From Eledone cirrhosa (taxonomy: Eukaryota), in assembly GCA_964016885.1 (NCBI GenBank), contig OZ024741.1:47802001-47866000 (forward strand): a stretch of DNA of 64,000 bases, in the 5' to 3' direction. The notes beneath the pieces were generated by a model. The model made no database searches and was not told the DNA's origin. It saw only the letters and a program-made list of their open reading frames with translations. The position numbers and the translations under genes were made by a program. This document shows positions 8,139 to 52,460 of this stretch, in pieces; position 1 is the first letter of the stretch, and each line of letters opens with the position of its first letter.

Positions 8139-8476
8139 ATAATATAAGATCAAAAGATGGTTAAAGGAGTTCCATATATTTTATTATGCGCATTTCAAAA
8201 ACAAACATCATCATGCAATAATATTTGTGTTTTCATCAGATAAAACAGGAGAACATGATATGAAGGCTAAAAAACACTTGTGGATAGTGCAGTTTTAAAT
8301 CAACATATGATATGTTGATTTAAAACTGCACTATCCACAAGTGTTTTTTAGCCTTCATATCATGTCCTGTTTTATCTGATGAAAACACAAATATTATTGC
8401 ATGATGATGTTTGTTTTTGAAATGCGCATAATAAAATATATGGAACTCCTTTAACCATCTTTTGATCTTATATTAT
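8139..8476. repeat. Fold-back palindrome of the 3' end of PLE family HC; HHRs at 8179-8245(-) and 8370-8436(+)
   Basis: Arms are reverse complements around a 1-nt centre (8309) and match 48955-49127. HHR: TTTTAT-CTGATGA-AAACA..TGTTTTT-GAAA-TGCGCA-TA-ATAAAA. Confidence 0.9.
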
Positions 8477-18680: not shown

Positions 18681-19859
18681 TATATATATATATGTAGATA
18701 AATCTACCAAGAGTTTACGGTAGTGTCCAATCCGTATGAAGAACTCAATGTATTCCGGATATCATGGAAAGAAGAGATGTAATGAAAAACCACTTTCGGT
18801 GAAAGATAAACGGTATACAGAGTCAAGATAAAATATTAAACAAATAATGAATAAAACAATTCCTTATATTAAACAAAAAAAGTTCATTATTTAACGATCG
18901 TTTCTAGGGTATATATGTGTTATAATTGGTATGCATATTCAACAGATCTATGTACAAAATTATACAAAATTATACAAATTATCAAGATTAAATATACATA
19001 CCTAACACATATATACGCCGTCTTCAGAAATAATGAAGTATATTTATTGATAATAACAACAATTCAAAATTTCAGTTCAAAATTGACCAATGAAAACACA
19101 AAGGGTTAAAAGCAGTTCGGTGTGTGTATATACATGTAAAATCCTTACACATATTTTACAAAAATGTATGTATAACTTGTATACGCATACTAAAAAGATG
19201 GATGCAAACACAAAATTTCAAGGTTAATATCTCTGTAAGCTTAAAATGCGCTGATAAGATGCGCATTGATACTTATGGAGTCAAGCATATAAATATATTT
19301 TTTCATACTCACACATATCAGTACAATCACACATACACGCGCTCATATGCATAAATATACACATAACCACGAACATACAAACACACACACACACCCACTC
19401 ACATTTATATATGTGGATATAAAATCATAAGCACATAGATATTAAATCACTCACATAAAACACTGGCACACACATTTCAAGATCAAGATACAGAAATTAG
19501 GTGGGAGGGGGGGGGGGGAGGGGTCAGTATTCAATTGTCTGAGCAGACTGCCTAATATAAATGTATCTATAAATTAAGAAAAATAAAAAAATAAAACAAT
19601 AAAATATAATAAATATAATATAATATACATACACATACAGATATATACACATACATACATGTACGCGCACATAGAAATATTTACGCATACACACATACAC
19701 ACATACATATACAGTCATACACATACATACACTTACACGAACATACACATACACATATATAAAGATATATATATACACACACACACACACACGCAACACA
19801 TACACACATACACATATATATAAAAAATAAATAATAAAGATATATATCCATATACATAT

Positions 19860-19902
<43 letters not shown>

Positions 19903-19981
19903 CATACACATACATCGAAATATACATACACATACATACACACATACATGTACATACATGTACATACATATACGGACATCG

Positions 19982-20030
<49 letters not shown>

Positions 20031-20507
20031 TAGACATATAGATACATACACACACAACTTACATACACACATACATATATATAGATGTACATTCATACAT
20101 AGAATTAGATATATAATCATACATACATATGTACCTACTTATACTCATATATATAAATACATACGCTTCCATATATGCTTATATACATAAAAAACACTAG
20201 AACCTCACCTAACTCAGACATACAAATAAAAATAATAATAAAAAAATAATAATAAAAAGGCATATGTATATACATACACACACGCATTAATAGAGATATA
20301 TATATATACACACATACATACACATATATATATATATACATATATATACACATACATATATATATATATAAATATATACACACACATACAATCATACATA
20401 TATATATATATATATATATATAAAAACATATATATCCACACACTCATACCACCATAAATACACATACAAACACCCACATATATATATATATATATATATA
20501 TACACAC

Positions 20508-20548
<41 letters not shown>

Positions 20549-20836
20549 TAAAAAACAGACATGCACATATATATATATATATACTTTTTTACACTTATAT
20601 ATACACATATTATATACACATACACAACCTCACTTATACACATATACACATAAGTTATATTATAATAATAAAGAATAATATACATATATATATATACATA
20701 TACATATATATATATATATATATACATACATACATACACATACATACATACACATAAACATATACATACATAAATACACACATACGAATAAAGACATATA
20801 TTCACACATAGACACCTATATATATATCTATATATC

Positions 20837-20896
<60 letters not shown>

Positions 20897-22034
20897 GATA
20901 CATATACACACTCACATATATATATGTGTATGTGTGTGTGCGCACATACACATATATACACACACACATACAAACACACACAAACACATACATATGCATA
21001 CGTGCACACACACACACATATATCACATAGATACGAAGATAAACATATAAATAGAGAGACATACATATATATACAACACAAATACACATACATACATACA
21101 CACGCATATACATATACATATATATATATACATATATATATATTCCTATATATACAAGCATACACATACATACACATATATACACATACATACACATATA
21201 CATACAACACATTCACATACACATACATATATAATGCATATATATACATATATATACATACATATGTACACTCATATATACACACGCAATCTTACATTCA
21301 TATTTGCATGCGCATATATGTATTTTTATATTTAGATATAAATACCCAAACCTATATAGACACCTACCTACATATATATTCATACATAGGCGCTTACAAA
21401 TACAGATGATAATAGTATGGGGGAAAGGGGGGGTTTGGAGAAGGGGATCAAAGTAAATATATGTTTCAAGAAACATATAATATAATATTTTCCGTATCTT
21501 TATTCAATGTATGTTCTTACATATTTTCAGTGCTAGGAAATACGACAAACAAGAACTAAGGCAAAATCTATGCATCTCAAAATAAATAAGTATACCATTA
21601 ATCATATGTTAACTAAACCAAAGATAGTCAACATATTGATTTCTAAGGTGTAAATTAGTTAGGTTTATAATATTTGAAGCAGAATTTTGAAGTCAAACAG
21701 TAGTAGATTATTAATTACAGTATAACTAAATTAAAGTTAATAACGTTATGGTATCAATATTAGGAAATGAATTTAGTAATATGGAAAAGAAACCCAAATA
21801 AAAATAAAATAAAGTATTACATCGGTAGTAGCATATAAATTATATGTTAACTAAATTAAAAATTATATATTTATTTCAATAGTATATGTTAATTAGTATA
21901 TGTTAATTAGGTATACAATACATAAAGCAGATATTGTATTTCATCAATAGCACAATATAATTATATGCAAATAGAAATCAAAATTAATACGCATACATAT
22001 ACATATACATACACATACACATATACATACATAT

Positions 22035-22075
<41 letters not shown>

Positions 22076-22608
22076 TACACATATATACATACATACAGAT
22101 ACACATACACACACACACATACACATACACATATACATATACATATCTTTTTCAAAAAATTGCACAGAATATATTAACTAGGTATATATCCAAAACACAT
22201 CCCATTCTATGATTACATGACGTTCTGCAATTCGTCTGTATAAGGATACTAATTTTAAGCAAATTAAAATTAAAATTTTTAGGTTGATTAAAACTAAAAC
22301 CAAATAATAAATATATTTCCAAAATGTATATTAATTAGGTCTATAATACTAAAAATTATTTCTCTGTCATTGGATACACGATATTATTTTGTTATATTTT
22401 ATCTGTAAAAGAGTTATAATAAAAGGTTTAAATAAATTAAAATTAATCTATAAATTAAATTACTAAGTATATATTAGTAATATTTAAAGGTTTTTCACAA
22501 TTTATGATTACATAATATTTTATATTCTCATCTGTAATGAAATATTAATTAAATTAAATTTATAGGTTAACTAACATTTAAATTAAATTAATTTCTAGAA
22601 TAATGTTA

Positions 22609-23270
22609 TTAATTAGGTTTATAATATTTAAATGTTTTTTTTAGTTTATGATTACACGATATAATTAATTCCTGTCGTTTATTTAATAAGATATCCTTAG
22701 ACTTCATTATTTCAAATAGTTCTTGGGAACATAATCTACATTCCTTTCTATTATTTTGATAAGGGGTGGCTCTTTTGAGCACACTCCAGGTCAAATCATA
22801 TTTTATATTCTTATTTTTATAACTATTGATTTTTTCTGCTAGAGATGTAGTATTAGCCAGTGCGGCATTTTTAAAACTATGCTTGTGGGTATTAAACCTT
22901 GTCTTAAAATTGTTAGAGGTAGCTCCTATATATGAGCAAATAGAATCTTTAGTTTTAACATTACATTTATAGACTATGTTGTTAACAAGACAATTCCCTT
23001 TTAATGGGCAGTTTGCTTTGTTTCTACAGTTACATCCTTTCGTTAATTCTGTATTTGAGGAGATATTATGGTTAATTTGATGTACTGGTGGTATACTTAT
23101 GGTTTTCTTACATTTATATGCATTATATGCACTTATATTTTGTTTTATGTTATTTGTTGTAGAATATGAGAATTTAACTGTAGACCTATTTAAGATTTGA
23201 TGGTATTTGTGGTTTGGCGGGAAGTTTTTCTCAAGGATATAAAAAAATTTTTTAGCAATATTATCCTTAA
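22609..23270 (-). pseudogene. PLE GIY-YIG endonuclease fragment (left arm)
   Basis: CNCRNKANCPLKGNC, IVYKC..YIGAT..FKTRFNTH, CRLC..E, LN..E..CNH. Confidence 0.88.
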
Positions 23271-23493
23271 TGATAATATTGATAAAATTTTTAATTTTAA
23301 TGATAATATTGATAATATTAATTTTAATGATAATATTGATAATATTAATTTTAATGATAATATTGATAATATTAAAAAAATTTTTTAGCAATATTATCCT
23401 TAATGATAATATTATCCTTAATGATAATAATGATAAAATTTTTTAGCAATATTATCCTTAATGATAATATTATCCTTAATGATAATATTATCC

Positions 23494-24155
23494 TTAATGA
23501 TAATATTGCTAAAAAATTTTTTTATATCCTTGAGAAAAACTTCCCGCCAAACCACAAATACCATCAAATCTTAAATAGGTCTACAGTTAAATTCTCATAT
23601 TCTACAACAAATAACATAAAACAAAATATAAGTGCATATAATGCATATAAATGTAAGAAAACCATAAGTATACCACCAGTACATCAAATTAACCATAATA
23701 TCTCCTCAAATACAGAATTAACGAAAGGATGTAACTGTAGAAACAAAGCAAACTGCCCATTAAAAGGGAATTGTCTTGTTAACAACATAGTCTATAAATG
23801 TAATGTTAAAACTAAAGATTCTATTTGCTCATATATAGGAGCTACCTCTAACAATTTTAAGACAAGGTTTAATACCCACAAGCATAGTTTTAAAAATGCC
23901 GCACTGGCTAATACTACATCTCTAGCAGAAAAAATCAATAGTTATAAAAATAAGAATATAAAATATGATTTGACCTGGAGTGTGCTCAAAAGAGCCACCC
24001 CTTATCAAAATAATAGAAAGGAATGTAGATTATGTTCCCAAGAACTATTTGAAATAATGAAGTCTAAGGATATCTTATTAAATAAACGACAGGAATTAAT
24101 TATATCGTGTAATCATAAACTAAAAAAAACATTTAAATATTATAAACCTAATTAA
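23494..24155 (+). pseudogene. PLE GIY-YIG endonuclease fragment (right arm)
   Basis: Same protein as the left arm. Confidence 0.88.
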
Positions 24156-24688
24156 TAACATTATTCTAGAAATTAATTTAATTTAAATGTTAGTTAACCT
24201 ATAAATTTAATTTAATTAATATTTCATTACAGATGAGAATATAAAATATTATGTAATCATAAATTGTGAAAAACCTTTAAATATTACTAATATATACTTA
24301 GTAATTTAATTTATAGATTAATTTTAATTTATTTAAACCTTTTATTATAACTCTTTTACAGATAAAATATAACAAAATAATATCGTGTATCCAATGACAG
24401 AGAAATAATTTTTAGTATTATAGACCTAATTAATATACATTTTGGAAATATATTTATTATTTGGTTTTAGTTTTAATCAACCTAAAAATTTTAATTTTAA
24501 TTTGCTTAAAATTAGTATCCTTATACAGACGAATTGCAGAACGTCATGTAATCATAGAATGGGATGTGTTTTGGATATATACCTAGTTAATATATTCTGT
24601 GCAATTTTTTGAAAAAGATATGTATATGTATATGTGTATGTGTATGTGTGTGTGTGTATGTGTATCTGTATGTATGTATATATGTGTA

Positions 24689-24729
<41 letters not shown>

Positions 24730-25867
24730 ATATGTATGTATATGTGTATGTGTATGTATATGTATATGTATGCGTATTAATTTTGATTTCTATTTGCATA
24801 TAATTATATTGTGCTATTGATGAAATACAATATCTGCTTTATGTATTGTATACCTAATTAACATATACTAATTAACATATACTATTGAAATAAATATATA
24901 ATTTTTAATTTAGTTAACATATAATTTATATGCTACTACCGATGTAATACTTTATTTTATTTTTATTTGGGTTTCTTTTCCATATTACTAAATTCATTTC
25001 CTAATATTGATACCATAACGTTATTAACTTTAATTTAGTTATACTGTAATTAATAATCTACTACTGTTTGACTTCAAAATTCTGCTTCAAATATTATAAA
25101 CCTAACTAATTTACACCTTAGAAATCAATATGTTGACTATCTTTGGTTTAGTTAACATATGATTAATGGTATACTTATTTATTTTGAGATGCATAGATTT
25201 TGCCTTAGTTCTTGTTTGTCGTATTTCCTAGCACTGAAAATATGTAAGAACATACATTGAATAAAGATACGGAAAATATTATATTATATGTTTCTTGAAA
25301 CATATATTTACTTTGATCCCCTTCTCCAAACCCCCCCTTTCCCCCATACTATTATCATCTGTATTTGTAAGCGCCTATGTATGAATATATATGTAGGTAG
25401 GTGTCTATATAGGTTTGGGTATTTATATCTAAATATAAAAATACATATATGCGCATGCAAATATGAATGTAAGATTGCGTGTGTATATATGAGTGTACAT
25501 ATGTATGTATATATATGTATATATATGCATTATATATGTATGTGTATGTGAATGTGTTGTATGTATATGTGTATGTATGTGTATATATGTGTATGTATGT
25601 GTATGCTTGTATATATAGGAATATATATATATGTATATATATATATGTATATGTATATGCGTGTGTATGTATGTATGTGTATTTGTGTTGTATATATATG
25701 TATGTCTCTCTATTTATATGTTTATCTTCGTATCTATGTGATATATGTGTGTGTGTGTGCACGTATGCATATGTATGTGTTTGTGTGTGTTTGTATGTGT
25801 GTGTGTATATATGTGTATGTGCGCACACACACATACACATATATATATGTGAGTGTGTATATGTATC

Positions 25868-25927
<60 letters not shown>

Positions 25928-26213
25928 GATATATATATATATATATAGGTGTCTATGTGTGAATATATGTCTTTATTCGTATGTGTGTATTTATGTATGT
26001 ATATGTTTATGTGTATGTATGTATGTGTATGTATGTATGTATATATATATATATATATATGTATATGTATATATATATATGTATATTATTCTTTATTATT
26101 ATAATATAACTTATGTGTATATGTGTATAAGTGAGGTTGTGTATGTGTATATAATATGTGTATATATAAGTGTAAAAAAGTATATATATATATATGTGCA
26201 TGTCTGTTTTTTA

Positions 26214-26252
<39 letters not shown>

Positions 26253-26731
26253 GTGTGTATATATATATATATATATATATATGTGGGTGTTTGTATGTGT
26301 ATTTATGGTGGTATGAGTGTGTGGATATATATGTTTTTATATATATATATATATATATATATGTATGATTGTATGTGTGTGTATATATTTATATATATAT
26401 ATATGTATGTGTATATATATGTATATATATATATATATGTGTATGTATGTGTGTATATATATATATCTCTATTAATGCGTGTGTGTATGTATATACATAT
26501 GCCTTTTTATTATTATTTTTTTATTATTATTTTTATTTGTATGTCTGAGTTAGGTGAGGTTCTAGTGTTTTTTATGTATATAAGCATATATGGAAGCGTA
26601 TGTATTTATATATATGAGTATAAGTAGGTACATATGTATGTATGATTATATATCTAATTCTATGTATGAATGTACATCTATATATATGTATGTGTGTATG
26701 TAAGTTGTGTGTGTATGTATCTATATGTCTA

Positions 26732-26778
<47 letters not shown>

Positions 26779-26857
26779 CGATGTCCGTATATGTATGTAC
26801 ATGTATGTACATGTATGTGTGTATGTATGTGTATGTATATTTCGATGTATGTGTATG

Positions 26858-26900
<43 letters not shown>

Positions 26901-27718
26901 ATATGTATATGGATATATATCTTTATTATTTATTTTTTATATATATGTGTATGTGTGTATGTGTTGCGTGTGTGTGTGTGTGTGTATATATATATCTTTA
27001 TATATGTGTATGTGTATGTTCGTGTAAGTGTATGTATGTGTATGACTGTATATGTATGTGTGTATGTGTGTATGCGTAAATATTTCTATGTGCGCGTACA
27101 TGTATGTATGTGTATATATCTGTATGTGTATGTATATTATATTATATTTATTATATTTTATTGTTTTATTTTTTTATTTTTCTTAATTTATAGATACATT
27201 TATATTAGGCAGTCTGCTCAGACAATTGAATACTGACCCCTCCCCCCCCTCCCACCTAATTTCTGTATCTTGATCTTGAAATGTGTGTGCCAGTGTTTTA
27301 TGTGAGTGATTTAATATCTATGTGCTTATGATTTTATATCCACATATATAAATGTGAGTGGGGGTGTGTGTGTGTTTGTATGTTCGTGGTTATGTGTATA
27401 TTTATGCATATGAGCGCGTGTATGTGTGATTGTACTGATATGTGTGAGTATGAAAAAATATATTTATATGCTTGACTCCATAAGTATCAATGCGCATCTT
27501 ATCAGCGCATTTTAAGCTTACAGAGATATTAACCTTGAAATTTTGTGTTTGCATCCATCTTTTTAGTATGCGTATACAAGTTATACATACATTTTTGTAA
27601 AATATGTGTAAGGATTTTACATGTATATACACACACCGAACTGCTTTTAACCCTTTGTGTTTTCATTGGTCAATTTTGAACTGAAATTTTGAATTGTTGT
27701 TATTATCAATAAATATAC

Positions 27719-27873
27719 TTCATTATTTCTGAAGACGGCGTATATATGTGTTAGGTATGTATATTTAATCTTGATAATTTGTATAATTTTGTATAATTTT
27801 GTACATAGATCTGTTGAATATGCATACCAATTATAACACATATATACCCTAGAAACGATCGTTAAATAATGAA
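27719..27873 (+). ncRNA. Type I hammerhead with ~115-nt stem II; copies at 18883-19037(-) and 51018-51160(+)
   Basis: TTCATTATTT-CTGAAGA-[long hairpin]-GAAA-CGATCG-TT-AAATAATGAA: 10-bp stem I and palindromic stem III. Confidence 0.8.
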
Positions 27874-27925
27874 CTTTTTTTGTTTAATATAAGGAATTGT
27901 TTTATTCATTATTTGTTTAATATTT

Positions 27926-28019
<94 letters not shown>

Positions 28020-28021
<2 letters not shown>

Positions 28022-28689
28022 CGATATTAAATAAATGGAAACTATATTTATAAAACCATATTTATTTCATTATATATATTTCAGGGATATCATATTAACA
28101 ATATGCTATGCCTTCCTCAGACAAAATACAATATAAACAGTTTTATAGATAAATAGATTTGACATACCGTACAACATCGACTTGTATTTGAAAAGTTGAA
28201 TTGGCAGTGAAAAAATTGTACACAGAGAGAAAGAAAGAGAGAAAAAGGAAAGAAAGACAGAAAACGAAGAAAAAGAAGAAAAAGAAGAAATGCATGGAAC
28301 AAAATGCATGGAACAAAATGTTCCATGCATTTCTTCTTTTTCTTCTTTTTCTTCGTTTTCTGTCTTTCTTTCCTTTTTCTCTCTTTCTTTCTCTCTGTGT
28401 ACAATTTTTTCACTGCCAATTCAACTTTTCAAATACAAGTCGATGTTGTACGGTATGTCAAATCTATTTATCTATAAAACTGTTTATATTGTATTTTGTC
28501 TGAGGAAGGCATAGCATATTGTTAATATGATATCCCTGAAATATATATAATGAAATAAATATGGTTTTATAAATATAGTTTCCATTTATTTAATATCGTA
28601 AATATACTCCAAATACTTGTCGAGTGCTTTTATATCAGTTATAAATATTTACTAGTTGTAACCCAACAATTTAAATATAACTTTCCATG

Positions 28690-28896: not shown

Positions 28897-29183
28897 AGTT
28901 TTAATATAGATGAGATTCTACAGGACTAGAACTGTTTCATTCATTAGAAATCATCAGGAATCTGGGTATCAAAAAATAAATATGGTATTTATAGGTCTCT
29001 ACAAGTGTAGAGACCTATAAATACCATATTTATTTATTTTTTGAAACCCAGATTCCTGATGATTTCTAATGAATGAAACAGTTCTAGTCCTGTAGAATCT
29101 CATCTATATTAAAACTGTTATACTCTGATATGTATTGAGTACCTTACTTACTGTGGTTACCTCCGATTCAACCCGGAATAACG
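28897..29183. repeat. Fold-back of a small HHR-bearing end; HHRs at 28913-28963(-) and 29050-29100(+)
   Basis: 2-nt centre at 29004-29005. HHR: AGATTC-CTGATGA-TTTC TAAT GAAT-GAAA-CAG TTCTAGTC CTG-TA-GAATCT. Confidence 0.85.
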
Positions 29184-29826: not shown

Positions 29827-29864
29827 TATATATATATATTTATATTTATATATATATTTATATT

Positions 29865-29935
<71 letters not shown>

Positions 29936-29960
29936 TTATATTTATATATATATTTATATT

Positions 29961-29999
<39 letters not shown>

Positions 30000-30002
30000 A
30001 TT

Positions 30003-30038
<36 letters not shown>

Positions 30039-30068
30039 TATTTATATATTTATATATATATATATTTA

Positions 30069-30109
<41 letters not shown>

Positions 30110-30132
30110 TTATATATATATATATTTATATT

Positions 30133-30229
<97 letters not shown>

Positions 30230-30258
30230 TTATATATTTATATATATATATTTATATT

Positions 30259-30291
<33 letters not shown>

Positions 30292-30310
30292 ATATATTTA
30301 TATATATATA

Positions 30311-30424
<114 letters not shown>

Positions 30425-30628
30425 TTATATATATATTTATATTTATATATATATTTATATTTATATATATATATATATTTATACTTATATATATATATAT
30501 ATATATTTAAATTGAAACAAAATGAAAACGAAATTTCATTTCTCACTCTTAGTATGGCACTTACTTAAATGTAAGTATGCATGTATACGTACATACATAT
30601 ATGTATACAGACGTACAGTAGCATGCAC

Positions 30629-30661
<33 letters not shown>

Positions 30662-30814
30662 TATACATATGCATACAGGTACACATACATATATGCACGT
30701 ATCAGTTTAGCGGCGCTAACGTCGCTTTGTTCGTTTGTAAACAAACTGAACAGCCTGAATTTATGCCATACGGTGTTAAGGCAACCACGTCACCTTTTTG
30801 TTCAACACTGACAC

Positions 30815-30867
30815 AGGAACGATGTACTAGTTTCAAGCTTGTTAGCTATCATCAGCACCGTTTACCC
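30815..30867 (-). ncRNA. Type I hammerhead ribozyme (element A, unit 1)
   Basis: GGG-UA-AACGGUG-CUGAUGA-U AGCU AACA AGCU U-GAAA-CUAG-UA-CAUCGUU-CCU. Confidence 0.88.
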
Positions 30868-31102
30868 ATCTGCCAGATAGTTGAACGTTCGAAAGTATAT
30901 ACTTTCCTTATGAAAATTAACGGCTGAGCAGCCTAATTTGCATATTGAGTGAGTTAAATCGGTTAGGCATACCGAAAACGATAAATTGAAACAAAATGAA
31001 AACGAAATTTCATTTCTCACTCTTAGTATGGCACTTACTTAAATGTAAGTATGCATGTATACGTACATACATATATGTATACAGACGTACAGTAGCATGC
31101 AC

Positions 31103-31135
<33 letters not shown>

Positions 31136-31288
31136 TATACATATGCATACAGGTACACATACATATATGCACGTATCAGTTTAGCGGCGCTAACGTCGCT
31201 TTGTTCGTTTGTAAACAAACTGAACAGCCTGAATTTATGCCATACGGTGTTAAGGCAACCACGTCACCTTTTTGTTCAACACTGACAC

Positions 31289-31341
31289 AGGAACGATGTA
31301 CTAGTTTCAAGCTTGTTAGCTATCATCAGCACCGTTTACCC
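31289..31341 (-). ncRNA. Type I hammerhead ribozyme (element A, unit 2)
   Basis: Identical to 30815-30867. Confidence 0.88.
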
Positions 31342-31491
31342 ATCTGCCAGATAGTTGAACGTTCGAAAGTATATACTTTCCTTATGAAAATTAACGGCTG
31401 TATACATATATGTATGTACGTATACATGCATACTTACATATATATATTTATATATATATATTTTTATATATATATATATTTATATATATAT

Positions 31492-33710
31492 AAAGCTATT
31501 TTTAATAATGCATCCCCCTACTATAATAAAGCGCTCCAAAATAGCGGTTTTAGCGAACCGATTAAGTACATACCTAACTATACTAACTCTATTAAACATA
31601 AAAATAGGAAAAGAAAAATAATCTGGTTCACACCCCCCTATCTCTAGCAGTTAAAACTAATGTAGGCAAAAAATTCCTTGAGCTCCTAGATAAACATTTC
31701 CCTAGAACACATAGATACTATAAGATCTTTAACAGAAATTGTGTCAAAATTAGCTATTCCTGCGGTCCCCCTATTAAGTCCTATATCCTCAACAAAATAT
31801 CACCTAGAGAAAATCAAACTTGCTCCTGTAGAATCAAAAGTGAATGCCCATTACAAGGTAAATGCAACACCAAAGCCATTGTATATGCGGCTCAAGTGAC
31901 AACCATCAGCAACAACCATCCAGCCACCAGTGAACGATATGTGGGTATGACGCAAGACAAATTCAAAACGCGTTATTACTCACATGTCGCATCCTTTCGA
32001 CATCCAGAAAAAAGATTTACAACAGCTCTGGCTAGCAGAATTTGGGATTTGAAAGACCAAGGCATCCAATATAAATTAGATTGGTCAATTTTGAACCAAT
32101 CTAAAGAATATGCTAGAGGAACAAGAAAATGCACGCTCTGCATAAATGAAAAATATTGGATATTGCAAAATCTAAAATCACCAAAGACCTGCCTGAACAC
32201 AAAGACGGAAATTTTCACCAGTTGCCCACACATGAAATCACACCTGCTTTCCAGCTCATATAAACTTAACACACTTTCAGATACTTATCCTCCATAAACT
32301 CTTATTATTCTCTTTTTAATTACCCTTTCTGACTTACTTTCATTTTTATTTTTATCCTTGTCAATAATTTCATTTATTTTTATTCTTATTTTTATTTTTT
32401 ATTTTTTATTTTTTATTTTTTATTTTTTATTTTTTATTTTTACTTCACATCCATCAATAACCCCCTCCCCCGCTTTATTCTCCGATTCACTTTCCATTTT
32501 TTACTTCCCCTTTTTTTTACTTCCCTTTTTCCTTCACTAACTGATTAGACTTGTCATTTGTGTTTTCCAATCCAGATATATTTTTCATTTTTATTTTTTT
32601 TAATTTTATTTTTATTTTTTTATTTTTGCGCAGCCAATCTTACAATTTTATATTTGTACTTACTTATCCACAAGTTTTTTACACCCTGTATCAATATGGC
32701 TGAACGTCTTAATGTGTGTATACTTTCTATATATGTACATGAGCGACTACGTATGTGCGCGCGCGTATGTATATATATATATATATATATGTGTGTGTAT
32801 ATATGTGTGTGTGTGTATGTATATATTATGCGTATGTGTATGTGTCCTTATATCCGTGTTTTGACATCTAGGTTTTATGTTTTGTTCCTTTTTCCTCCTC
32901 CCCCCCCCCCCTTTTTACTTACTCTTTTTTATGCGTGTGCAGGCAAACAGGTCAATATGCGTGAGTGTAAGTATGTGTGTGTGTGTGTGTGTGTATGTAC
33001 GTATCGAACGTATGGATGTGTAAGTGTGCGTGTGTATATAAGCATGTATATTTTTGCGTTTCTTTTGTGAGATATGCGTGTCTGTGTATGTATGTACCCT
33101 TTTTTGTCTTCTTTTCTTTAATTTTTTCTTTCTAAAAATTTTTTCTTTCTAATTTATTGTTACATTTTTATAAATATATCGAGATTGATACTTTGCTTTA
33201 ATTATTACACTCCCTTACCTCTTTTACTTCCGCATCTAAGTGTACGTGTGTGTATTCATATTCTTATGATGTATCTATTCTGTCTGTAGATTACAGACAT
33301 ACAGATACATTTGCCCTAAATTTTATATTTACGCACACTTTTTCACTATACGTATACATATGTGCATACACATATATGCACATCTGTGAGCGTATATACA
33401 TACATATACACACACCTAACTATATTTCTTGATAGATTTTTATATATTTCAATTTCTAATTCATTTGTCTATATCCCTTTTTTTTTTGATTTTCTTGATG
33501 AGACTTTCCAAGTATTTACCCATGTTTTATATTGCCTCGTCTGACGAACGAATGAAGACGTTTCTTTAGTATTCGCCTCATTCGGGAAACCTCTGGTAAT
33601 GAGGTAATTATATTGTATTGATTTTTATACATTAGATTTTGCTCTGATACTTACATAGAGCACTCTTCACTTCTATGACCTTTTCTGTTTCCAACGGAAA
33701 TTTCAATACT
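31492..33710 (+). mobile_element. 5'-truncated PLE (family HB, related to HA): thumb and GIY-YIG remnants, 3' UTR, HHR
   Basis: KRKIIWFTPP and ERYVGMTQDKFKTRYYSH..CTLC..EK (ORF 31896-32297). Confidence 0.9.
33531..33608 (+). ncRNA. Type I hammerhead ribozyme (family HB)
   Basis: ATTGCCTCGT-CTGACGA-A CGAATGA..TCATTCG G-GAAA-CCTCTGG-TA-ATGAGGTAAT. Confidence 0.82.
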
Positions 33711-38579: not shown

Positions 38580-39162
38580 ATTTTAATTTTGATATATATA
38601 TATATATATATATATCGTTTCTGAATTTGTTTAGCAAGATTCTTTATCTGAAATCGTGTGTTGAAACCGATATTGTTATACTTTGGGAGGGTCATGTTGC
38701 CAATAAGAAACACACGCACCAGTTGCTTTCACTTCAATTTAATTTATTAAATATTTATAAATTTCTGGTTGGTTGGTTGGTTCCACAACCAGATAGTTGT
38801 TTATATATATATAGTCATAGTTCTTTCGTCACACACTCTGTGACCTCTTCAGTGACTGGGGATTTTGTTCTTCGTTTCTGTGTCTTTCCTTTCTTCTATC
38901 CTACGCCATTTTGTTTGTGTGTGGGTTGCGTGCTCAGTTTGCGCATGCGCCACATCCGGGTGTCTGTGTGTGTTTGTGTTCATTTTTCTATTTATCTATT
39001 TATATTTTTCTATTTGTTTGTTTATTTATTTATTTATTGTTGGTTGGTTGTTTGTTCTATGTGTGTGTGTGTTTTCATTTTGTCTTGTGTGTGTTTTCAT
39101 TTTGTGTGTGTTTTCGATTGTAAGTTGTTTGTTCTATGTGTGTGTGTGTTTTCATTTTGTCC

Positions 39163-41871
39163 TTAATTGTAAGTTGTGATGTTGCTGTTCCACTCATATT
39201 TTCTATTTAATTTTGGTTTTAATTCTTTTATGCTTACTGCCTCTGTAATTTGCCTAAACATTGCGTCTTTCTTGTGTGTGGATTCTATTTTTATTTCTAT
39301 GCTCTCTAATTTACCCCTGTGTTCTATCTTAGCATGTTGGTAGAGCACAGATGATTCTTTACTATCTTGGAGGTCTCGCCAGTGTTCATTTATTCGTTCC
39401 CCTATACTACGAGCTGTCTCACCTATGTACACTACATTTTTGTTTCTACATTGTCCCTCAGTACATCTTATGCTATATACTACATTTCTAGTTTTACAGT
39501 TAATATGGGGGCTTATTTTACAGGTTATACATTTCTTATCTATACATGAGGGTCTTTGGAACGGGTATGTCTTGCTAATAAGTGTTTTTACGGAGGTACC
39601 AGGTCTTTCTACTATCTTAATATTGAGATTATGTTTCTTTAGGGCCCTTCTAAATTTGTAGGCTAGTTCGCCTCTAGGGGTTGTATTGATGAACATTACA
39701 CTCTGGTATTTATTGCTATCATACCATGAGTTTATTCTATTGGCCTTGTTCTTAGTTCTTTCTATTCTATTCCAAAATTTGCTCCTATACAAGGAGCAGG
39801 TCCCATTTATGTCATTATTTACCATTTTTTCCCATTTGGTTCTGGCTCCTTTATACACTCTGATTCTATCTCTCTGATTGTAGCCAGAGAATTGCATACG
39901 GTGGATGAAGTGTTGTATGTGTCTCTCTAGTTCTTCGGGGTTGCACATGCGGGACACATTTCTCATCACCCGTACCAAATCCGCAATCAGTATGTTGATT
40001 TTGGTATGGTCCGAAATGGCCGAGTTTCGGTGGATCAGATGTTTGGAAGTCATGGGTTTGGCATAATGGGAATGGAGGATTTGTTTTTGGTTGTTAATAG
40101 TATCTAACCAGAGCTCTGTGTCTAGTACAGGTAATCGATGGTTGGGGTGTCTACTTGGGTAGTCTATAGTAACTCTAATGCTCTGGTGGATGGAGTTTGC
40201 TATTTGCTGGATGCTTTCCATTGTGTTTTTCTCTAGTTCCTGACTGTTCTTTAGTGGGGGTGTCTTAACTACGATGTTTATATCATCTACGTAGCGGGAG
40301 TACATTATCAGGGTTAAGCTGTCTTCTAATTGTTCATTAAGTTTTTGTTTAAGTCTACTGTCCCACCATACCATGAATAAGTTAGCTATGTCGCCTGCAA
40401 TGCTAACACCAATGGCTGCTCCTTCCTCTTGGGCATATGTTTTACCATTAAATTTGAACATATGTTCCTTAAGGGTTAGTTTTATGCTGGCCCCTACCGC
40501 ATGTGCAATCATTTTCTTCAGTTCATCGTGGTTTTCGGGTGTCCGTATGGCTCTGGTCCACCCGTTCCATCTATCTGTGTGGGTTTTCTTGGCCATTGAG
40601 GTAATGGTAGGTGGTCTGCCTCTTGCTGGTCTTGTAGGGCACAGGTTGCTAAGGTCATAAGTGTCTAGGTAACTATTACTATGGGTAAGCTTAAGTAGAA
40701 GTCCCAGCTCACTGGTATCAATCCCACGGAACTCAACCTTGCTCTCGCTGATCATTTCGACGCATTTCTCTACAGCAAAATCCACGTCAATAGATGGATA
40801 CAGGGACACAACATCCATACTGCCTATTATGCAGTTTGTTAGGTCCCCAGATCGGTTACCCGCGCCGATTCTGCTGAGGAGGTCCTCCGTGCTGTCACAC
40901 ACATCTGGGGACATCTCAATGATGGGGCGTATGATCAGGGAGAGGAAGTAGGACAGTCTGTAGTTACTAGCAATGTTAGCCCCACAGACTGGCCGTGTTG
41001 GTGGTCCCGCGACAGGGTCCCAGCCCGTTTTATGGTCTTTACGAAGCCCATACAACGCCGGCACGTCATTGTTCCAGGCCTGGAAGTTGTTGGCAGTCCT
41101 TTTGTTGGGCTGCATTATATTTGTCCACATCACCATATGGGCATTGAGGGTTTTTTCTCTATCCTCATGCTCCTGTGGTGTTACCTCTCTTGTGTTAGTG
41201 ATGTGGGGTTGCATTGCCTGGATGTAGTTTGGCAGGCTGTCAACCGACATTCTGCCAGACTTGTCTGTTGGAAAGCATGCTATCTCTCCATTACGCGAGC
41301 GCTGCATGAGCTTACGCAAGCCATTTGCAGATTCTTCTCCCAGTTGCTGGGCCTCTATTCTATTATGCTTCTTGCTATACTGTTCTATAATATTTCTAAG
41401 TTCGGATTTAGCTATACTAAATTGTGCCTCTGTTTGTTCATCGACCTGCGACGGCAACTGCGTGCGTTTGTTAAATGGCAAAGTCGTGGCGTGGACTCGT
41501 CGTAGGTCGAATGATTTATCGGAGGGGTTATAAAACGGAGAGTTCCAGGCTGCTGCTTTATGTGTACTAGTGCTATTGTTATTGTTAGTTGTGTTGTTTC
41601 TATTTCCACCAACAGCAGCAGCCTCAGCTTCATGGTTGTTTCTATGTCTCTCATAATTACTCCTGTCTCTTTCCACTGGCTCAATGTTGTTATCTACCCT
41701 ATTTTGTGTGTCTGTGTGTTCGTCTTGGTTATTCTCTTTGTCCTTAGTCTCCCATCTCCTTTTCCTTTTCCTTTTAATCCTATTACTTTCTCTTATTTCT
41801 CTGATTTCTGTGCTACTGTCATTACTTGTTTTCTGTGTCTGTGTGTTTGTTAAGATTGTGGTGAGAGGCAT
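39163..41871 (-). CDS. PLE reverse transcriptase plus Cys-rich linker and GIY-YIG endonuclease (902 aa)
   Basis: [74 protein letters not shown]. Confidence 0.92.
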   Translation of the reverse strand: MPLTTILTNTQTQKTSNDSSTEIREIRESNRIKRKRKRRWETKDKENNQDEHTDTQNRVDNNIEPVERDRSNYERHRNNHEAEAAAVGGNRNNTTNNNNSTSTHKAAAWNSPFYNPSDKSFDLRRVHATTLPFNKRTQLPSQVDEQTEAQFSIAKSELRNIIEQYSKKHNRIEAQQLGEESANGLRKLMQRSRNGEIACFPTDKSGRMSVDSLPNYIQAMQPHITNTREVTPQEHEDREKTLNAHMVMWTNIMQPNKRTANNFQAWNNDVPALYGLRKDHKTGWDPVAGPPTRPVCGANIASNYRLSYFLSLIIRPIIEMSPDVCDSTEDLLSRIGAGNRSGDLTNCIIGSMDVVSLYPSIDVDFAVEKCVEMISESKVEFRGIDTSELGLLLKLTHSNSYLDTYDLSNLCPTRPARGRPPTITSMAKKTHTDRWNGWTRAIRTPENHDELKKMIAHAVGASIKLTLKEHMFKFNGKTYAQEEGAAIGVSIAGDIANLFMVWWDSRLKQKLNEQLEDSLTLIMYSRYVDDINIVVKTPPLKNSQELEKNTMESIQQIANSIHQSIRVTIDYPSRHPNHRLPVLDTELWLDTINNQKQILHSHYAKPMTSKHLIHRNSAISDHTKINILIADLVRVMRNVSRMCNPEELERHIQHFIHRMQFSGYNQRDRIRVYKGARTKWEKMVNNDINGTCSLYRSKFWNRIERTKNKANRINSWYDSNKYQSVMFINTTPRGELAYKFRRALKKHNLNIKIVERPGTSVKTLISKTYPFQRPSCIDKKCITCKISPHINCKTRNVVYSIRCTEGQCRNKNVVYIGETARSIGERINEHWRDLQDSKESSVLYQHAKIEHRGKLESIEIKIESTHKKDAMFRQITEAVSIKELKPKLNRKYEWNSNITTYN

Positions 41872-42843
41872 TGAATGCGTGTGTGTTGTTGTTGTTGATG
41901 TGTGTTGTTGTTGTCTCCGTGTGTGTGTGTGTTATCGTTGTTGTGTGTGTTGTTATTGTTGTTTGTGTTTGCGTGTCTGTTGTTGTTGTATCTGGGTATG
42001 TTGCTATTGTTGTTGTTATTGTTGTTTGTGTCTGTGTGTCTGTTGTTGTTGGGATGTGTGTTGTATATGTGTGTGCGTATATTGTTGCTTTTGTTTTTGT
42101 TTTTGTTTTTGATGCTCCAGCGTAGTTTCGTAAATGATTTTTCTATTTCTGACAGACAACTAATCATATTTACCTTCTTGAATGTCGCAAATTTGGGTGG
42201 CAGACGTAACACAGACATTTCATTATTATCTATTTCTGTGTTTCCATAGATGTTGGTATTTTCATTGTTGAACTCTTCAGATAATGAGGTGTCGGCCATG
42301 TTGATACCGTCAATTTTGTCGGGATATCTATTGGTATACTCTATAGTATCCCGATTTAGCTTTGCCTGTTTAAGCCACTTTAATTTTCTGTTAAAGTGCT
42401 TATTACATTCTTGAGTAATGTACTGTTCTTCGGGACGTATAAGGCTTATAAATGTTAGTTTTTCTGCTGGTGTGGTGATTTTAGATATTTCATCTATTAG
42501 GTTACGCTTTAGTTTTTCTTGATGACTTAATTCTCTATAGATCTTCTTTTTTATGTTTAGAATTAAATTTCGTTTTAGCCTATCTGCTTGTTTTTTGGTG
42601 AGTTGTAATCTTCTAACGTCGGTATTGATGGTGTTGGTGTAGATTCTAGAAGTGGTGCACAGTTTTATGAAGTGTAGTTGTCGAGATGTTATGGTTTTTC
42701 GTAGACAACAGAACATGGTGGTTTTCAGTATCTTGTTAGCCTGGCTAAGGCTTACGATATTTCGTTTCTGAATTTGTTTAGCAAGATTCTTTATCTGAAA
42801 TCGTGTGTTGAAACCGATATTGTTATACTTTGGGAGGGTCATG
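41850..42843 (-). CDS. N-terminal part of the PLE ORF (basic, helical), out of frame with the RT
   Basis: ATG at 42843 lies inside the pLTR. The E.SVLRLPPKF..IEKSFTKLRW motif is typical of PLE N-termini. Ends in an N/T/H-rich microsatellite. Confidence 0.7.
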
Positions 42844-42994
42844 TTGCCAATAAGAAACACACGCACCAGTTGCTTTCACTTCAATTTAATTTATTAAATA
42901 TTTATAAATTTCTGGTTGGTTGGTTGGTTCCACAACCAGATAGTTGTTTATATATATATAGTCATAGTTCTTTCGTCACACACTCCATTTCGTC

Positions 42995-44932
42995 ACCACC
43001 TACCATTACCTCAATGGCCAAGAAAACCCACACAGATAGATGGAACGGGTGGACCAGAGCCATACGGACACCCGAAAACCACGATGAACTGAAGAAAATG
43101 ATTGCACATGCGGTAGGGGCCAGCATAAAACTAACCCTTAAGGAACATATGTTCAAATTTAATGGTAAAACATATGCCCAAGAGGAAGGAGCAGCCATTG
43201 GTGTTAGCATTGCAGGCGACATAGCTAACTTATTCATGGTATGGTGGGACAGTAGACTTAAACAAAAACTTAATGAACAATTAGAAGACAGCTTAACCCT
43301 GATAATGTACTCCCGCTACGTAGATGATATAAACATCGTAGTTAAGACACCCCCACTAAAGAACAGTCAGGAACTAGAGAAAAACACAATGGAAAGCATC
43401 CAGCAAATAGCAAACTCCATCCACCAGAGCATTAGAGTTACTATAGACTACCCAAGTAGACACCCCAACCATCGATTACCTGTACTAGACACAGAGCTCT
43501 GGTTAGATACTATTAACAACCAAAAACAAATCCTCCATTCCCATTATGCCAAACCCATGACTTCCAAACATCTGATCCACCGAAACTCGGCCATTTCGGA
43601 CCATACCAAAATCAACATACTGATTGCGGATTTGGTACGGGTGATGAGAAATGTGTCCCGCATGTGCAACCCCGAAGAACTAGAGAGACACATACAACAC
43701 TTCATCCACCGTATGCAGTTCTCTGGCTACAATCAGAGAGATAGAATCAGAGTGTATAAAGGAGCCAGAACCAAATGGGAAAAAATGGTAAATAATGACA
43801 TAAATGGGACCTGCCCCTTGTATAGGAGCAAATTTTGGAATAGAATAGAAAGAACTAAGAACAAGGCCAATAGAATAAACTCATGGTATGATAGCAATAA
43901 ATACCAGAGTGTAATGTTCATCAATACAACCCCTAGAGGCGAACTAGCCTACAAATTTAGAAGGGCCCTAAAGAAACATAATCTCAATATTAAGATAGTA
44001 GAAAGACCTGGTACCTCCGTAAAAACACTTATTAGCAAGACATACCCGTTCCAAAGACCCTCATGTATAGATAAGAAATGTATAACCTGTAAAATAAGCC
44101 CCCATATTAACTGTAAAACTAGAAATGTAGTATATAGCATAAGATGTACTGAGGGACAATGTAGAAACAAAAATGTAGTGTACATAGGTGAGACAGCTCG
44201 TAGTATAGGGGAACGAATAAATGAACACTGGCGAGACCTCCAAGATAGTAAAGAATCATCTGTGCTCTACCAACATGCTAAGATAGAACACAGGGGTAAA
44301 TTAGAGAGCATAGAAATAAAAATAGAATCCACACACAAGAAAGACGCAATGTTTAGGCAAATTACAGAGGCAGTAAGCATAAAAGAATTAAAACCAAAAT
44401 TAAATAGAAAATATGAGTGGAACAGCAACATCACAACTTACAATTAAGGACAAAATGAAAACACACACACACATAGAACAAACAACTTACAATCGAAAAC
44501 ACACACAAAATGAAAACACACACAAGACAAAATGAAAACACACACACACATAGAACAAACAACCAACCAACAATAAATAAATAAATAAACAAACAAATAG
44601 AAAAATATAAATAGATAAATAGAAAAATGAACACAAACACACACAGACACCCGGATGTGGCGCATGCGCAAACTGAGCACGCAACCCACACACAAACAAA
44701 ATGGCGTAGGATAGAAGAAAGGAAAGACACAGAAACGAAGAACAAAATCCCCAGTCACTGAAGAGGTCACAGAGTGTGTGACGAAAGAACTATGACTATA
44801 TATATATAAACAACTATCTGGTTGTGGAACCAACCAACCAACCAGAAATTTATAAATATTTAATAAATTAAATTGAAGTGAAAGCAACTGGTGCGTGTGT
44901 TTCTTATTGGCAACATGACCCTCCCAAAGTAT

Positions 44933-44940
<8 letters not shown>
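42995..44940 (+). mobile_element. Inverted 5'-truncated copy of family N; HHR at 44753-44797
   Basis: Reverse complement of about 38670-40615. Confidence 0.93.
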
Positions 44941-46057: not shown

Positions 46058-46102
46058 ATTGCCCTGATGAGTCCTTAATAGGACGAAACATTGTCGGCTA
46101 AT
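46058..46102 (+). ncRNA. Canonical type I hammerhead in a short PLE-like 3' fragment (about 45630-46148)
   Basis: ATTGCC-CTGATGA-GTCCT TAAT AGGAC-GAAA-CATTG-TC-GGCTAAT. Confidence 0.85.
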
Positions 46103-49155: not shown

Positions 49156-49227
49156 GCCGTGATCGTCTAGTGGTTAGGACCCCACGTTGTGGCCGTGGTA
49201 ACCCAGGTTCGAATCCTGGTCACGGCA
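49156..49227 (+). tRNA. tRNA-His: tRNA-His (GUG)
   Basis: 72-nt cloverleaf, acceptor stem GCCGTGA/TCACGGC, anticodon loop TTGTGGC, T loop GGTTCGAATCC, TTTT at 49237-49240. Confidence 0.95.
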
Positions 49228-50984: not shown

Positions 50985-51507
<523 letters not shown>

Positions 51508-51510
51508 ATT

Positions 51511-51565
<55 letters not shown>

Positions 51566-52460
51566 TAAACAATTAAGTTAAAAATGTACATCTACATATG
51601 CATACTGAAATACTAGTGTGTATATGAATACACACACGTATACATATGTAGGTGTACCAAGTCTTTCACTGGTCGCTTTACAGTGAGCGGCCCAGCTATT
51701 CTGTATGTAAACACACAGACAAACCGGTTTTTAGAGTCATACTGGTTTTGGGGGAACACCTTCCCCCTATTCTCCAGAAACAGAAAGCCAGACAAGGAAT
51801 ATTGAACTAGTTTCGTTGTTGTTACAACTCATCAGCAATATTTACCTATCTACCGGCCTTTCTGGAGAATTGTAAAAGCACATATCGTTATATGCTTTTT
51901 CTATGAAAATTAGTAGTGGGCAGACTAATTTGCATAGAGTGTGAGTACAAATAACGAAACGAAATTTAATTTCGTTTCGTTATTTGTTTTTATCGTCTCC
52001 GCTGAACCGGTGCGTACTCACACTCTATGCAAATTAGTCTGCCCACTACTAATTTTCATAGAAAAAGCATATAACGATATGTGCTTTTACAATTCTCCAG
52101 AAAGGCCGGTAGATAGGTAAATATTGCTGATGAGTTGTAACAACAACGAAACTAGTTCAATATTCCTTGTCTGGCTTTCTGGAGAATAGGGGGAAGGTGT
52201 TCCCCCCAAAACCAGTATGACTCTAAAAACCGGTTTGTCTGTGTGTTTACATACAGAATAGCTGGGCCGCTCACTGTAAAGCGACCAGTGAAAGACTTGG
52301 TACACCTACATATGTATACGTGTGTGTATTCATATACACACTAGTATTTCAGTATGCATATGTAGATGTACATTTTTAACTTAATTGTTTAAGCGTCAGT
52401 CATACAAAAGTGAGTTACAAACGAAACGAAATTTAATTTCGTTTCGTTATTTGTTTTTAT
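51566..52460 (+). mobile_element. Retrozyme-like non-coding element B: 467-nt unit with terminal redundancy plus an inverted arm
   Basis: 51953-51993 recurs at 52420-52460. 51566-51948 is the reverse complement of 52014-52391. (TA)n flanks. Confidence 0.82.
52115..52167 (+). ncRNA. Type I hammerhead ribozyme (element B); inverted copy at 51795-51847(-)
   Basis: AGG-UA-AAUAUUG-CUGAUGA-GUUGU AACA ACAAC-GAAA-CUAG-UU-CAAUAUU-CCU. Confidence 0.9.

Follow-up and report, generated by a model that had tools for sequence, protein, structure and literature searches.

Metazoan non-LTR retrozymes, as described by Cervera and de la Pena 2020 (PMC7229834) and by Li, Clavereau and Pollet 2026 (10.64898/2026.07.22.740005), are tandem non-coding repeats that carry one type I hammerhead per unit, are low in GC and strongly self-paired, reach thousands of copies and co-occur with Penelope-like elements (PLEs). 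PLEs have been named a "strong candidate" for their mobilisation (PMC7229834, whose Fig. S6 shows other invertebrate retrozymes); the 2026 study adds PLE co-occurrence and pLTR similarity and proposes local satellite growth. For PLEs themselves the reported footprint is an inverted 5'-truncated copy with a tail on one end only (PMC3846280, PMC8557442), the tail corresponding to the interval that separates two internal RT start sites (PMC11167929) and measuring 30-40 nt (PMC3846280, PMC8557442, PMC11167929).

The two elements analysed here, A and B, lie in a 64,000-nt stretch of the Eledone cirrhosa genome (the window, to which all coordinates below refer) and share every retrozyme trait listed above. 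Their units (~425 to 525 nt across the family) exceed the 170-400 nt given in PMC7229834 but fall inside the 51-972 range of 10.64898/2026.07.22.740005, and their one-pair palindromic stem III resembles that of axolotl HHR_Amex1. Unlike the many frog retrozyme families with pLTR similarity, A and B (known from genome sequence alone) have no detected pLTR parent. With PLE insertions (PMC3846280, PMC8557442, PMC11167929) they share the head-to-head 5'-truncated arm, the one-ended tail, two adjacent fixed 3' ends, AT-rich or (TA)n targets and a hammerhead upstream of the ends. On the other hand, they differ from PLEs in lacking an RT/GIY-YIG ORF, in forming pure unit concatemers, in carrying a canonical rather than a minimal hammerhead, and in a tail of 58-68 nt instead of 30-40 nt. 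Non-autonomous Chlamys PLEs such as MRC1 (PMC8557442) are likewise non-coding and form multicopy head-to-tail insertions by PLE machinery.

A preliminary description of the window had proposed a candidate new family of retrozymes. The retrozyme reading is supported by tandem non-coding type I hammerhead units in thousands of copies, with no ORF attached in ~95 insertions. As for novelty, the family was not found in the papers searched, whereas its class, the non-LTR retrozymes, is already described. No published work on it was found in the open main texts and listings covered, and the family may already be catalogued elsewhere. Word look-ups in the main texts of PMC7229834 and 10.64898/2026.07.22.740005 gave no mention of two-armed inverted insertions, tail/no-tail ends, (TA)n targeting or conserved long-range helices. 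Overall, we consider A and B to be, with good probability, the youngest members of two sister lineages of hammerhead-motif non-LTR retrozyme, likely copied in trans by a PLE endonuclease and RT.

Layout, homology and abundance of the two elements

Element A occupies 30508-31400 on the minus strand as 1.9 identical 474-nt units with a long 3' end at 30508; an inverted 49-nt stub (31394-31442, plus strand) ends at the short 3' end, and (TA)n target tracts lie to the left (29827-30507) and right (31443-31492). Element B consists of a plus-strand right arm (51953-52460; one 467-nt unit and 41 nt), which ends at the long, tail-bearing 3' end, and a 5'-truncated minus-strand left arm (51565-51952, inner limit approximate), which carries a 6-nt duplication and a 1-nt deletion and ends at the short, tail-less 3' end. 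Its (TA)n target tract (51358-51564) has a matching right-hand tract at 52461-~52845. The tandem organisation first attributed to both elements thus holds for A, with the inverted stub in addition, but not for B in the window, which is two inverted arms placed head to head; the 467-nt period is visible there only as a 41-nt terminal direct repeat, and true tandem 467-nt B units were found at other genomic loci.

The hammerhead strands of A (minus) and B both carry all seven modules of the preliminary description, in the order given there. The resemblance between the elements had been understated as "little overall identity": outside the RY segment 206 of 333 aligned columns (62%) are identical, and the global alignment scores 17 where 100 shuffles give -251+/-20. 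On the hammerhead strand no ATG ORF exceeds 41 aa in A or 19 aa in B; on the opposite strand the longest have 76 and 20 aa. As units, A and B are clearly homologous, collinear and non-coding.

The motif common to both (the module-2 pattern) has 17,279 exact matches in the 3.0-Gb genome, against none for the reversed control. The best 40 scored candidates for each element are 99-100% identical, those of B spread over many contigs and those of A over several loci, and many of them are tandem arrays; dispersed copies co-occur with autonomous PLEs in the genome. Sixteen real copies fall into two ladder-like lineages with the window's A and B types at the tips. Apart from B variants and older A-side subfamilies, two pattern scans for a third, distant lineage returned only hammerhead-like motifs that are unrelated or due to chance (one such scan gave 49 matches versus 147 in its control). 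A further scan of this kind gave another older A-side subfamily, with 2,044 additional tail matches; at its loci (L181-L210) the hammerhead frequently combines a C-A stem II base with a GUU cut site, yet the subfamily reached ~2,000 tail copies. Contigs from sequencing runs X1, X2, X5 and X6 (the X5/X6 pieces at low depth) contained subfamily variants only. The copies show no A-to-G editing bias (A>G 160, G>A 140, C>T 177, T>C 154).

Predicted fold of the unit and its conservation

The type I hammerhead of B spans 52109-52180 on the plus strand, with a palindromic 6-nt stem/loop III and a predicted cut after 52157 (GUU); its mirror copy lies at 51782-51853 on the minus strand (predicted cut at 51805), and the hammerheads of A, also on the minus strand, have predicted cuts at 30825 and 31299 (GUA). 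Rfam HH9 matches both B copies at 38.6 bits and A weakly (18.5 bits, E 0.047), in each case below the 52-bit cut-off. Stem III is reduced to one firm pair and the palindromic loop, a form that acts as a dimer in amphibians (PMC7229834, PMC4209133). The base of stem II in A is U-U, not G-C (C-A in older copies). Either mismatch may make cleavage weak; U-U has precedents, HHR_Amex2 being one, and only one of nine frog retrozyme dimers cleaved (Li et al. 2026, 10.64898/2026.07.22.740005).

The remainder of the fold is described on the plus strand of B. Module-1 hairpins are present in both elements, as stated earlier, but in registers of pairing that differ between A and B. The module 2 hairpin (52026-52060) is near-invariant in sequence across lineages, without covariation, and holds an 8-mer that we take to resemble the "octamer" promoter element. 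Beyond the predicted module 3 hairpin (52063-52088), an extended stem I (52092-52187) is predicted to clamp the two ends of the ribozyme-cut monomer through 29 pairs (23 in A). It is followed by a hairpin 3' of the hammerhead (52189-52206) with two compensatory changes inside the B lineage, the module 6 hairpin (52238-52257) with its UUUA-type apex, and the RY-rich segment (approximately 52300-52375), a predicted long hairpin of variable length. The short 3'-end site (52388-52393), the inferred RT start 1, is a hexamer invariant in 16 of 16 aligned copies. The tail (52394-52460), about 68 nt long in B and 58 nt in A, includes the first strand of P1 (52410-52415), a hairpin (52420-52448) and the long 3'-end site, the inferred RT start 2. 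It also contributes the second strand (52398-52405) of P2, a helix predicted by RNAalifold that links the stretch past the hammerhead (first strand 52215-52222) to the start of the tail and changes on both sides in three of its eight pairs. Neither P2, with its compensatory changes, nor the predicted P1 was among the modules first listed. Against 40 shuffles the circular minimum free energy has z = -7.7 for A and -14.1 for B (-4.4 and -10.3 for the opposite strands); as modelled, the monomers are stable and highly self-paired.

The consensus comes from RNAalifold on the 16 copies, and the pair statistics from three lineages without phylogeny-aware correction. Of the cells in 38 pairs chosen by hand, 97.5% pair; the covariation score of 0.288 (0.112+/-0.012 in shuffles, reached in 0 of 500) refers to a structure derived from the same 16 sequences, with one 2-bp helix entered one register off; in the correct register that helix is G-C in 16 of 16 copies. 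The number of doubly changed pairs, 10, was reached by 78 of 500 shuffles. Compensatory pairs number three in stem I, three in stem II and none in module 2, where 9 of 11 pairs never vary. Of the covarying architecture proposed in the preliminary description, stems I and II have support from compensatory changes and module 2 has none; the newly added P2 has such support as well, and covariation as a whole is weaker than implied. Changes in the hammerhead core sit at tolerated positions and the core is kept in all lineages; with the compensation in stems I and II, this suggests that cleavage is selected.

A separate and less circular comparison used 24 A loci and 31 B loci. Changes present in at least two loci fall at paired and unpaired sites in a ratio of 47:53, private changes in a ratio of 53:25 (p=0.006 pooled; p=0.001 for B; lineage A alone is not significant, p=0.24). 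Shared changes did not keep pairs significantly more often than private ones (20:21 vs 20:37, p=0.21). The further claim of conserved structured domains under selection beyond the ribozyme finds support in this avoidance of paired sites by subfamily-level changes, tempered by the restriction to three lineages and by module 2 with its lack of covariation. Overall, selection on the RNA structure of the units is supported but not proven.

The invariance of the module 2 5' strand and its want of covariation would also fit conservation as a DNA promoter element rather than as RNA structure. The model would be an octamer/snRNA-type promoter, presumably as in newt satellite 2. We regard this as improbable. 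No octamer occurs in the 330 nt upstream of any of 35 U1/U2 loci in the same genome (at two loci there is one near -400), the upstream motifs common to U1/U2 genes are not seen in A or B when compared by eye, the suspected PSE-like stretch is one strand of helix P2, and older copies restore a module-2 mismatch to a C-G pair. The snRNA-type version was rejected on these upstream regions (35 loci, by eye and by octamer scan). The U1/U2 upstream regions themselves (L066-L100) have common motifs near -57, -90 and -250 to -260, a TATA-like run near -30 and no octamer, and the U2 and U1 genes form tandem arrays of about 2.2 and 2.7 kb.

Insertion footprint and relation to PLEs

Taken in genome order, the first 100 module-2 matches (of 17,279) led to 35 regions, which contain 37 insertions (hand count). 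The usual layout is a pair of head-to-head inverted arms inside (TA)n; the outer ends are 3' ends at either of two fixed sites, 58 nt (A) or ~68 nt (B) apart, and, as seen at the ends themselves, most adjoin (TA)n. Both sites are U-rich with A as the final base, and could pair with a TA primer. In twenty-three of the 37 insertions there are two arms, each ending at a fixed site (two of these have stub arms under ~20 nt), and 22 of the 23 combine one long with one short end (p=3e-6 against independent end choice; 21 of 22 if one possibly interrupted copy is removed). The other 14 were left unscored: three have two arms but an atypical end, and 11 are one-armed or unresolved. The two arms usually begin at different 5' positions, and either one may be the longer. 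An inverted 5'-truncated arm with a tail on one end only, the published mark of a PLE-mobilised insertion, is therefore present in 22 of 23 cases. Since the insertion scars match the published footprint, a PLE enzyme is likely to do the copying, and from the genomic copies we judge PLE mobilisation of A and B to be highly probable. The link to PLE proteins, which the preliminary description had made by citation only, is thereby borne out, and the footprint is direct genomic support for the PLE-mobilisation hypothesis of a kind not found in the papers searched.

Two insertions are joined directly to other elements. At L022 (1341-2040) a B arm is fused, with 2-3 nt of microhomology, to the hammerhead end of another PLE family's pLTR as the opposite arm. 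A ~200-nt palindromic element in (TA)n (L120:4058-4105, L162:1510-1725; 3,071 candidates) has a short and a long end of its own, with no ORF close by; at L120 a stub of this element serves as the second arm of an A insertion. The two junctions could be co-insertions, but nesting explains them equally well, as both partner elements are abundant.

That the units might prove to be ordinary pLTRs of an RT-coding element had been named at the outset among the outcomes that would overturn the retrozyme reading. A tblastn search with 8 PLE protein pieces from the window, covering ~95 of several thousand insertions, found a unit joined to an RT/GIY-YIG ORF in none of ~95 independent insertions (hand count; loci L001-L065, L101-L140, L181-L210). 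At L011 a same-strand PLE ORF is located 517 nt upstream; this reads as a nested insertion, since the B copy starts internally and the PLE's own hammerhead end follows downstream. In the window and at L109 a truncated PLE ORF starts ~50 nt past the short end of A, over a TA tract, which a shared target explains most simply. Comparison of A and B with ten pLTR-like ends nearby (60 comparisons) gave a best p of about 0.01, the chance level, while the A-vs-B control comparisons beat all 200 shuffles. A profile scan of 819 kb of genomic loci for a partner found, among the matches listed, nothing outside the family.

The window has many RT/GIY-YIG-type PLE ORFs beside (TA)n; its pLTRs carry minimal hammerheads with a long stem II, unlike A and B. 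Pfam gave one weak RVT_1 match on 5 PLE proteins. A stop-free 922-aa PLE-type ORF (39163-41931 minus, 42705-44447 plus) belongs to a young two-armed inverted insertion (arms 38670-40615 and 42995-44940, minimal hammerhead at 44758) and is one of several candidates for the partner. At 8258-8360, 28120-28540, 28957-29080 and 46058-46102 lie several small, palindromic stumps of PLE pLTRs that bear minimal hammerheads, together with one compact type I hammerhead (Rfam Hammerhead_1, 31.7 bits) that precedes a PLE fragment. A ~9-kb inverted duplication (18828-27928, centre near 23380) has PLE endonuclease ends on both strands, and a tRNA gene (49156-49227 plus, 62 bits) lies directly past a PLE end. 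One PLE endonuclease-end copy (1-930 minus) differs from a 67%-identical relative in L011 by 118 A>G against 3 G>A on the coding strand; it looks hypermutated, as expected if ADAR-edited RNA was reverse transcribed.

Form of the template and origin of the inverted arms

The 5' ends of the copies are scattered, with 2 of 58 (positions hand-read) within 15 nt of the predicted cut where 3.8 are expected, and many arms span several units. A cut linear monomer was thereby ruled out as template, which leaves a circle or an uncut multimer. We lean slightly towards the circle. Arrays are homogeneous (~2 differences per core between arms vs ~20 between arrays), and in one a variant occupies 9 of 9 units across both arms; others are mosaic, each arm having the variants in just part of its units, a pattern not expected from a single monomer circle. 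Such mosaics would suit an uncut linear multimer transcribed by read-through of an array already in place, its hammerhead dormant or only occasionally active and any circles incidental, as would the weak stem III and the non-canonical base of stem II; in the anole PLE system RNA that stays uncleaved is the main substrate, and mutating the ribozyme leaves insertion normal (PMC11167929). The compensatory changes in stems I and II and the universally kept core speak against a dormant ribozyme, as do arrays of ~30 units, though unequal crossover could have lengthened these later, and we find the multimer rather unlikely.

It is very improbable, in our assessment, that the units are orphaned pLTRs of an autonomous PLE absent from the sample, expanded locally as satellites in the manner of the Li et al. 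2026 model. Their footprint is identical to that of PLE stumps, the ORF search was a limited sample of proteins and insertions, and of the frog retrozyme families 24 of 57 match known TEs, with 21 of the 22 being PLEs (Li et al. 2026, 10.64898/2026.07.22.740005). However, in fresh dispersed insertions unit follows unit in both arms with no intervening ORF, which means that tandems are made during insertion; the ten pLTR-like ends compared show no similarity to A or B; and both lineages passed through many subfamilies as ORF-less units. A remote pLTR ancestry may nonetheless apply. For the inverted arm, fold-back or self-priming of one cDNA would replace two-strand priming from two RNA start sites. 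PMC3846280 proposes self-priming for PLE junctions that are palindromic; in the window, B has its centre on the tail hairpin, and in two arrays a variant is placed symmetrically around the centre. Against it stand the different 5' starts of the arms, either of which may be longer, and the finding that purified PLE protein cuts and extends both strands (PMC11167929); we think it unlikely, although less so than orphaned pLTRs.

Under mobilisation in trans by a PLE, multimeric transcripts would be cut by the hammerhead working as a dimer, through its one-pair stem III and palindromic loop; the long stem I would keep the two new ends in place until they were ligated, giving a circle that a single hammerhead could not open again. 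A PLE protein would then bind the conserved domain around the two start sites (the P1/P2 junction, the tail hairpin and module 2), nick both strands of the (TA)n tract and prime one cDNA per start site, and the RT would run round the template to leave two inverted concatemer arms joined at their 5' ends. For this domain as the PLE docking site, a proposal drawn from the modelled fold, we put the chances as even. A more far-reaching version, which we hold only tentatively, is a viroid-sized RNA lineage that would live only as a circular PLE template: its conserved domain would dock a PLE dimer, each subunit priming one target strand from its own site, and rolling-circle RT would write two inverted concatemers into (TA)n.

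The mover of animal retrozymes has so far been argued from co-occurrence and pLTR similarity, to which the A and B copies add a PLE reverse-transcription footprint. Tandem arrays are already present in fresh dispersed insertions and so do not come only from later satellite growth. The copies also place two start sites within a few bases inside a conserved RNA fold, and the published in vitro PLE assay makes template form, start-site pairing and docking domain directly testable. If the lineage does live only as a circular PLE template, the comparison of A and B would map the first PLE-binding RNA structure of a retrozyme, one with no surviving pLTR parent.
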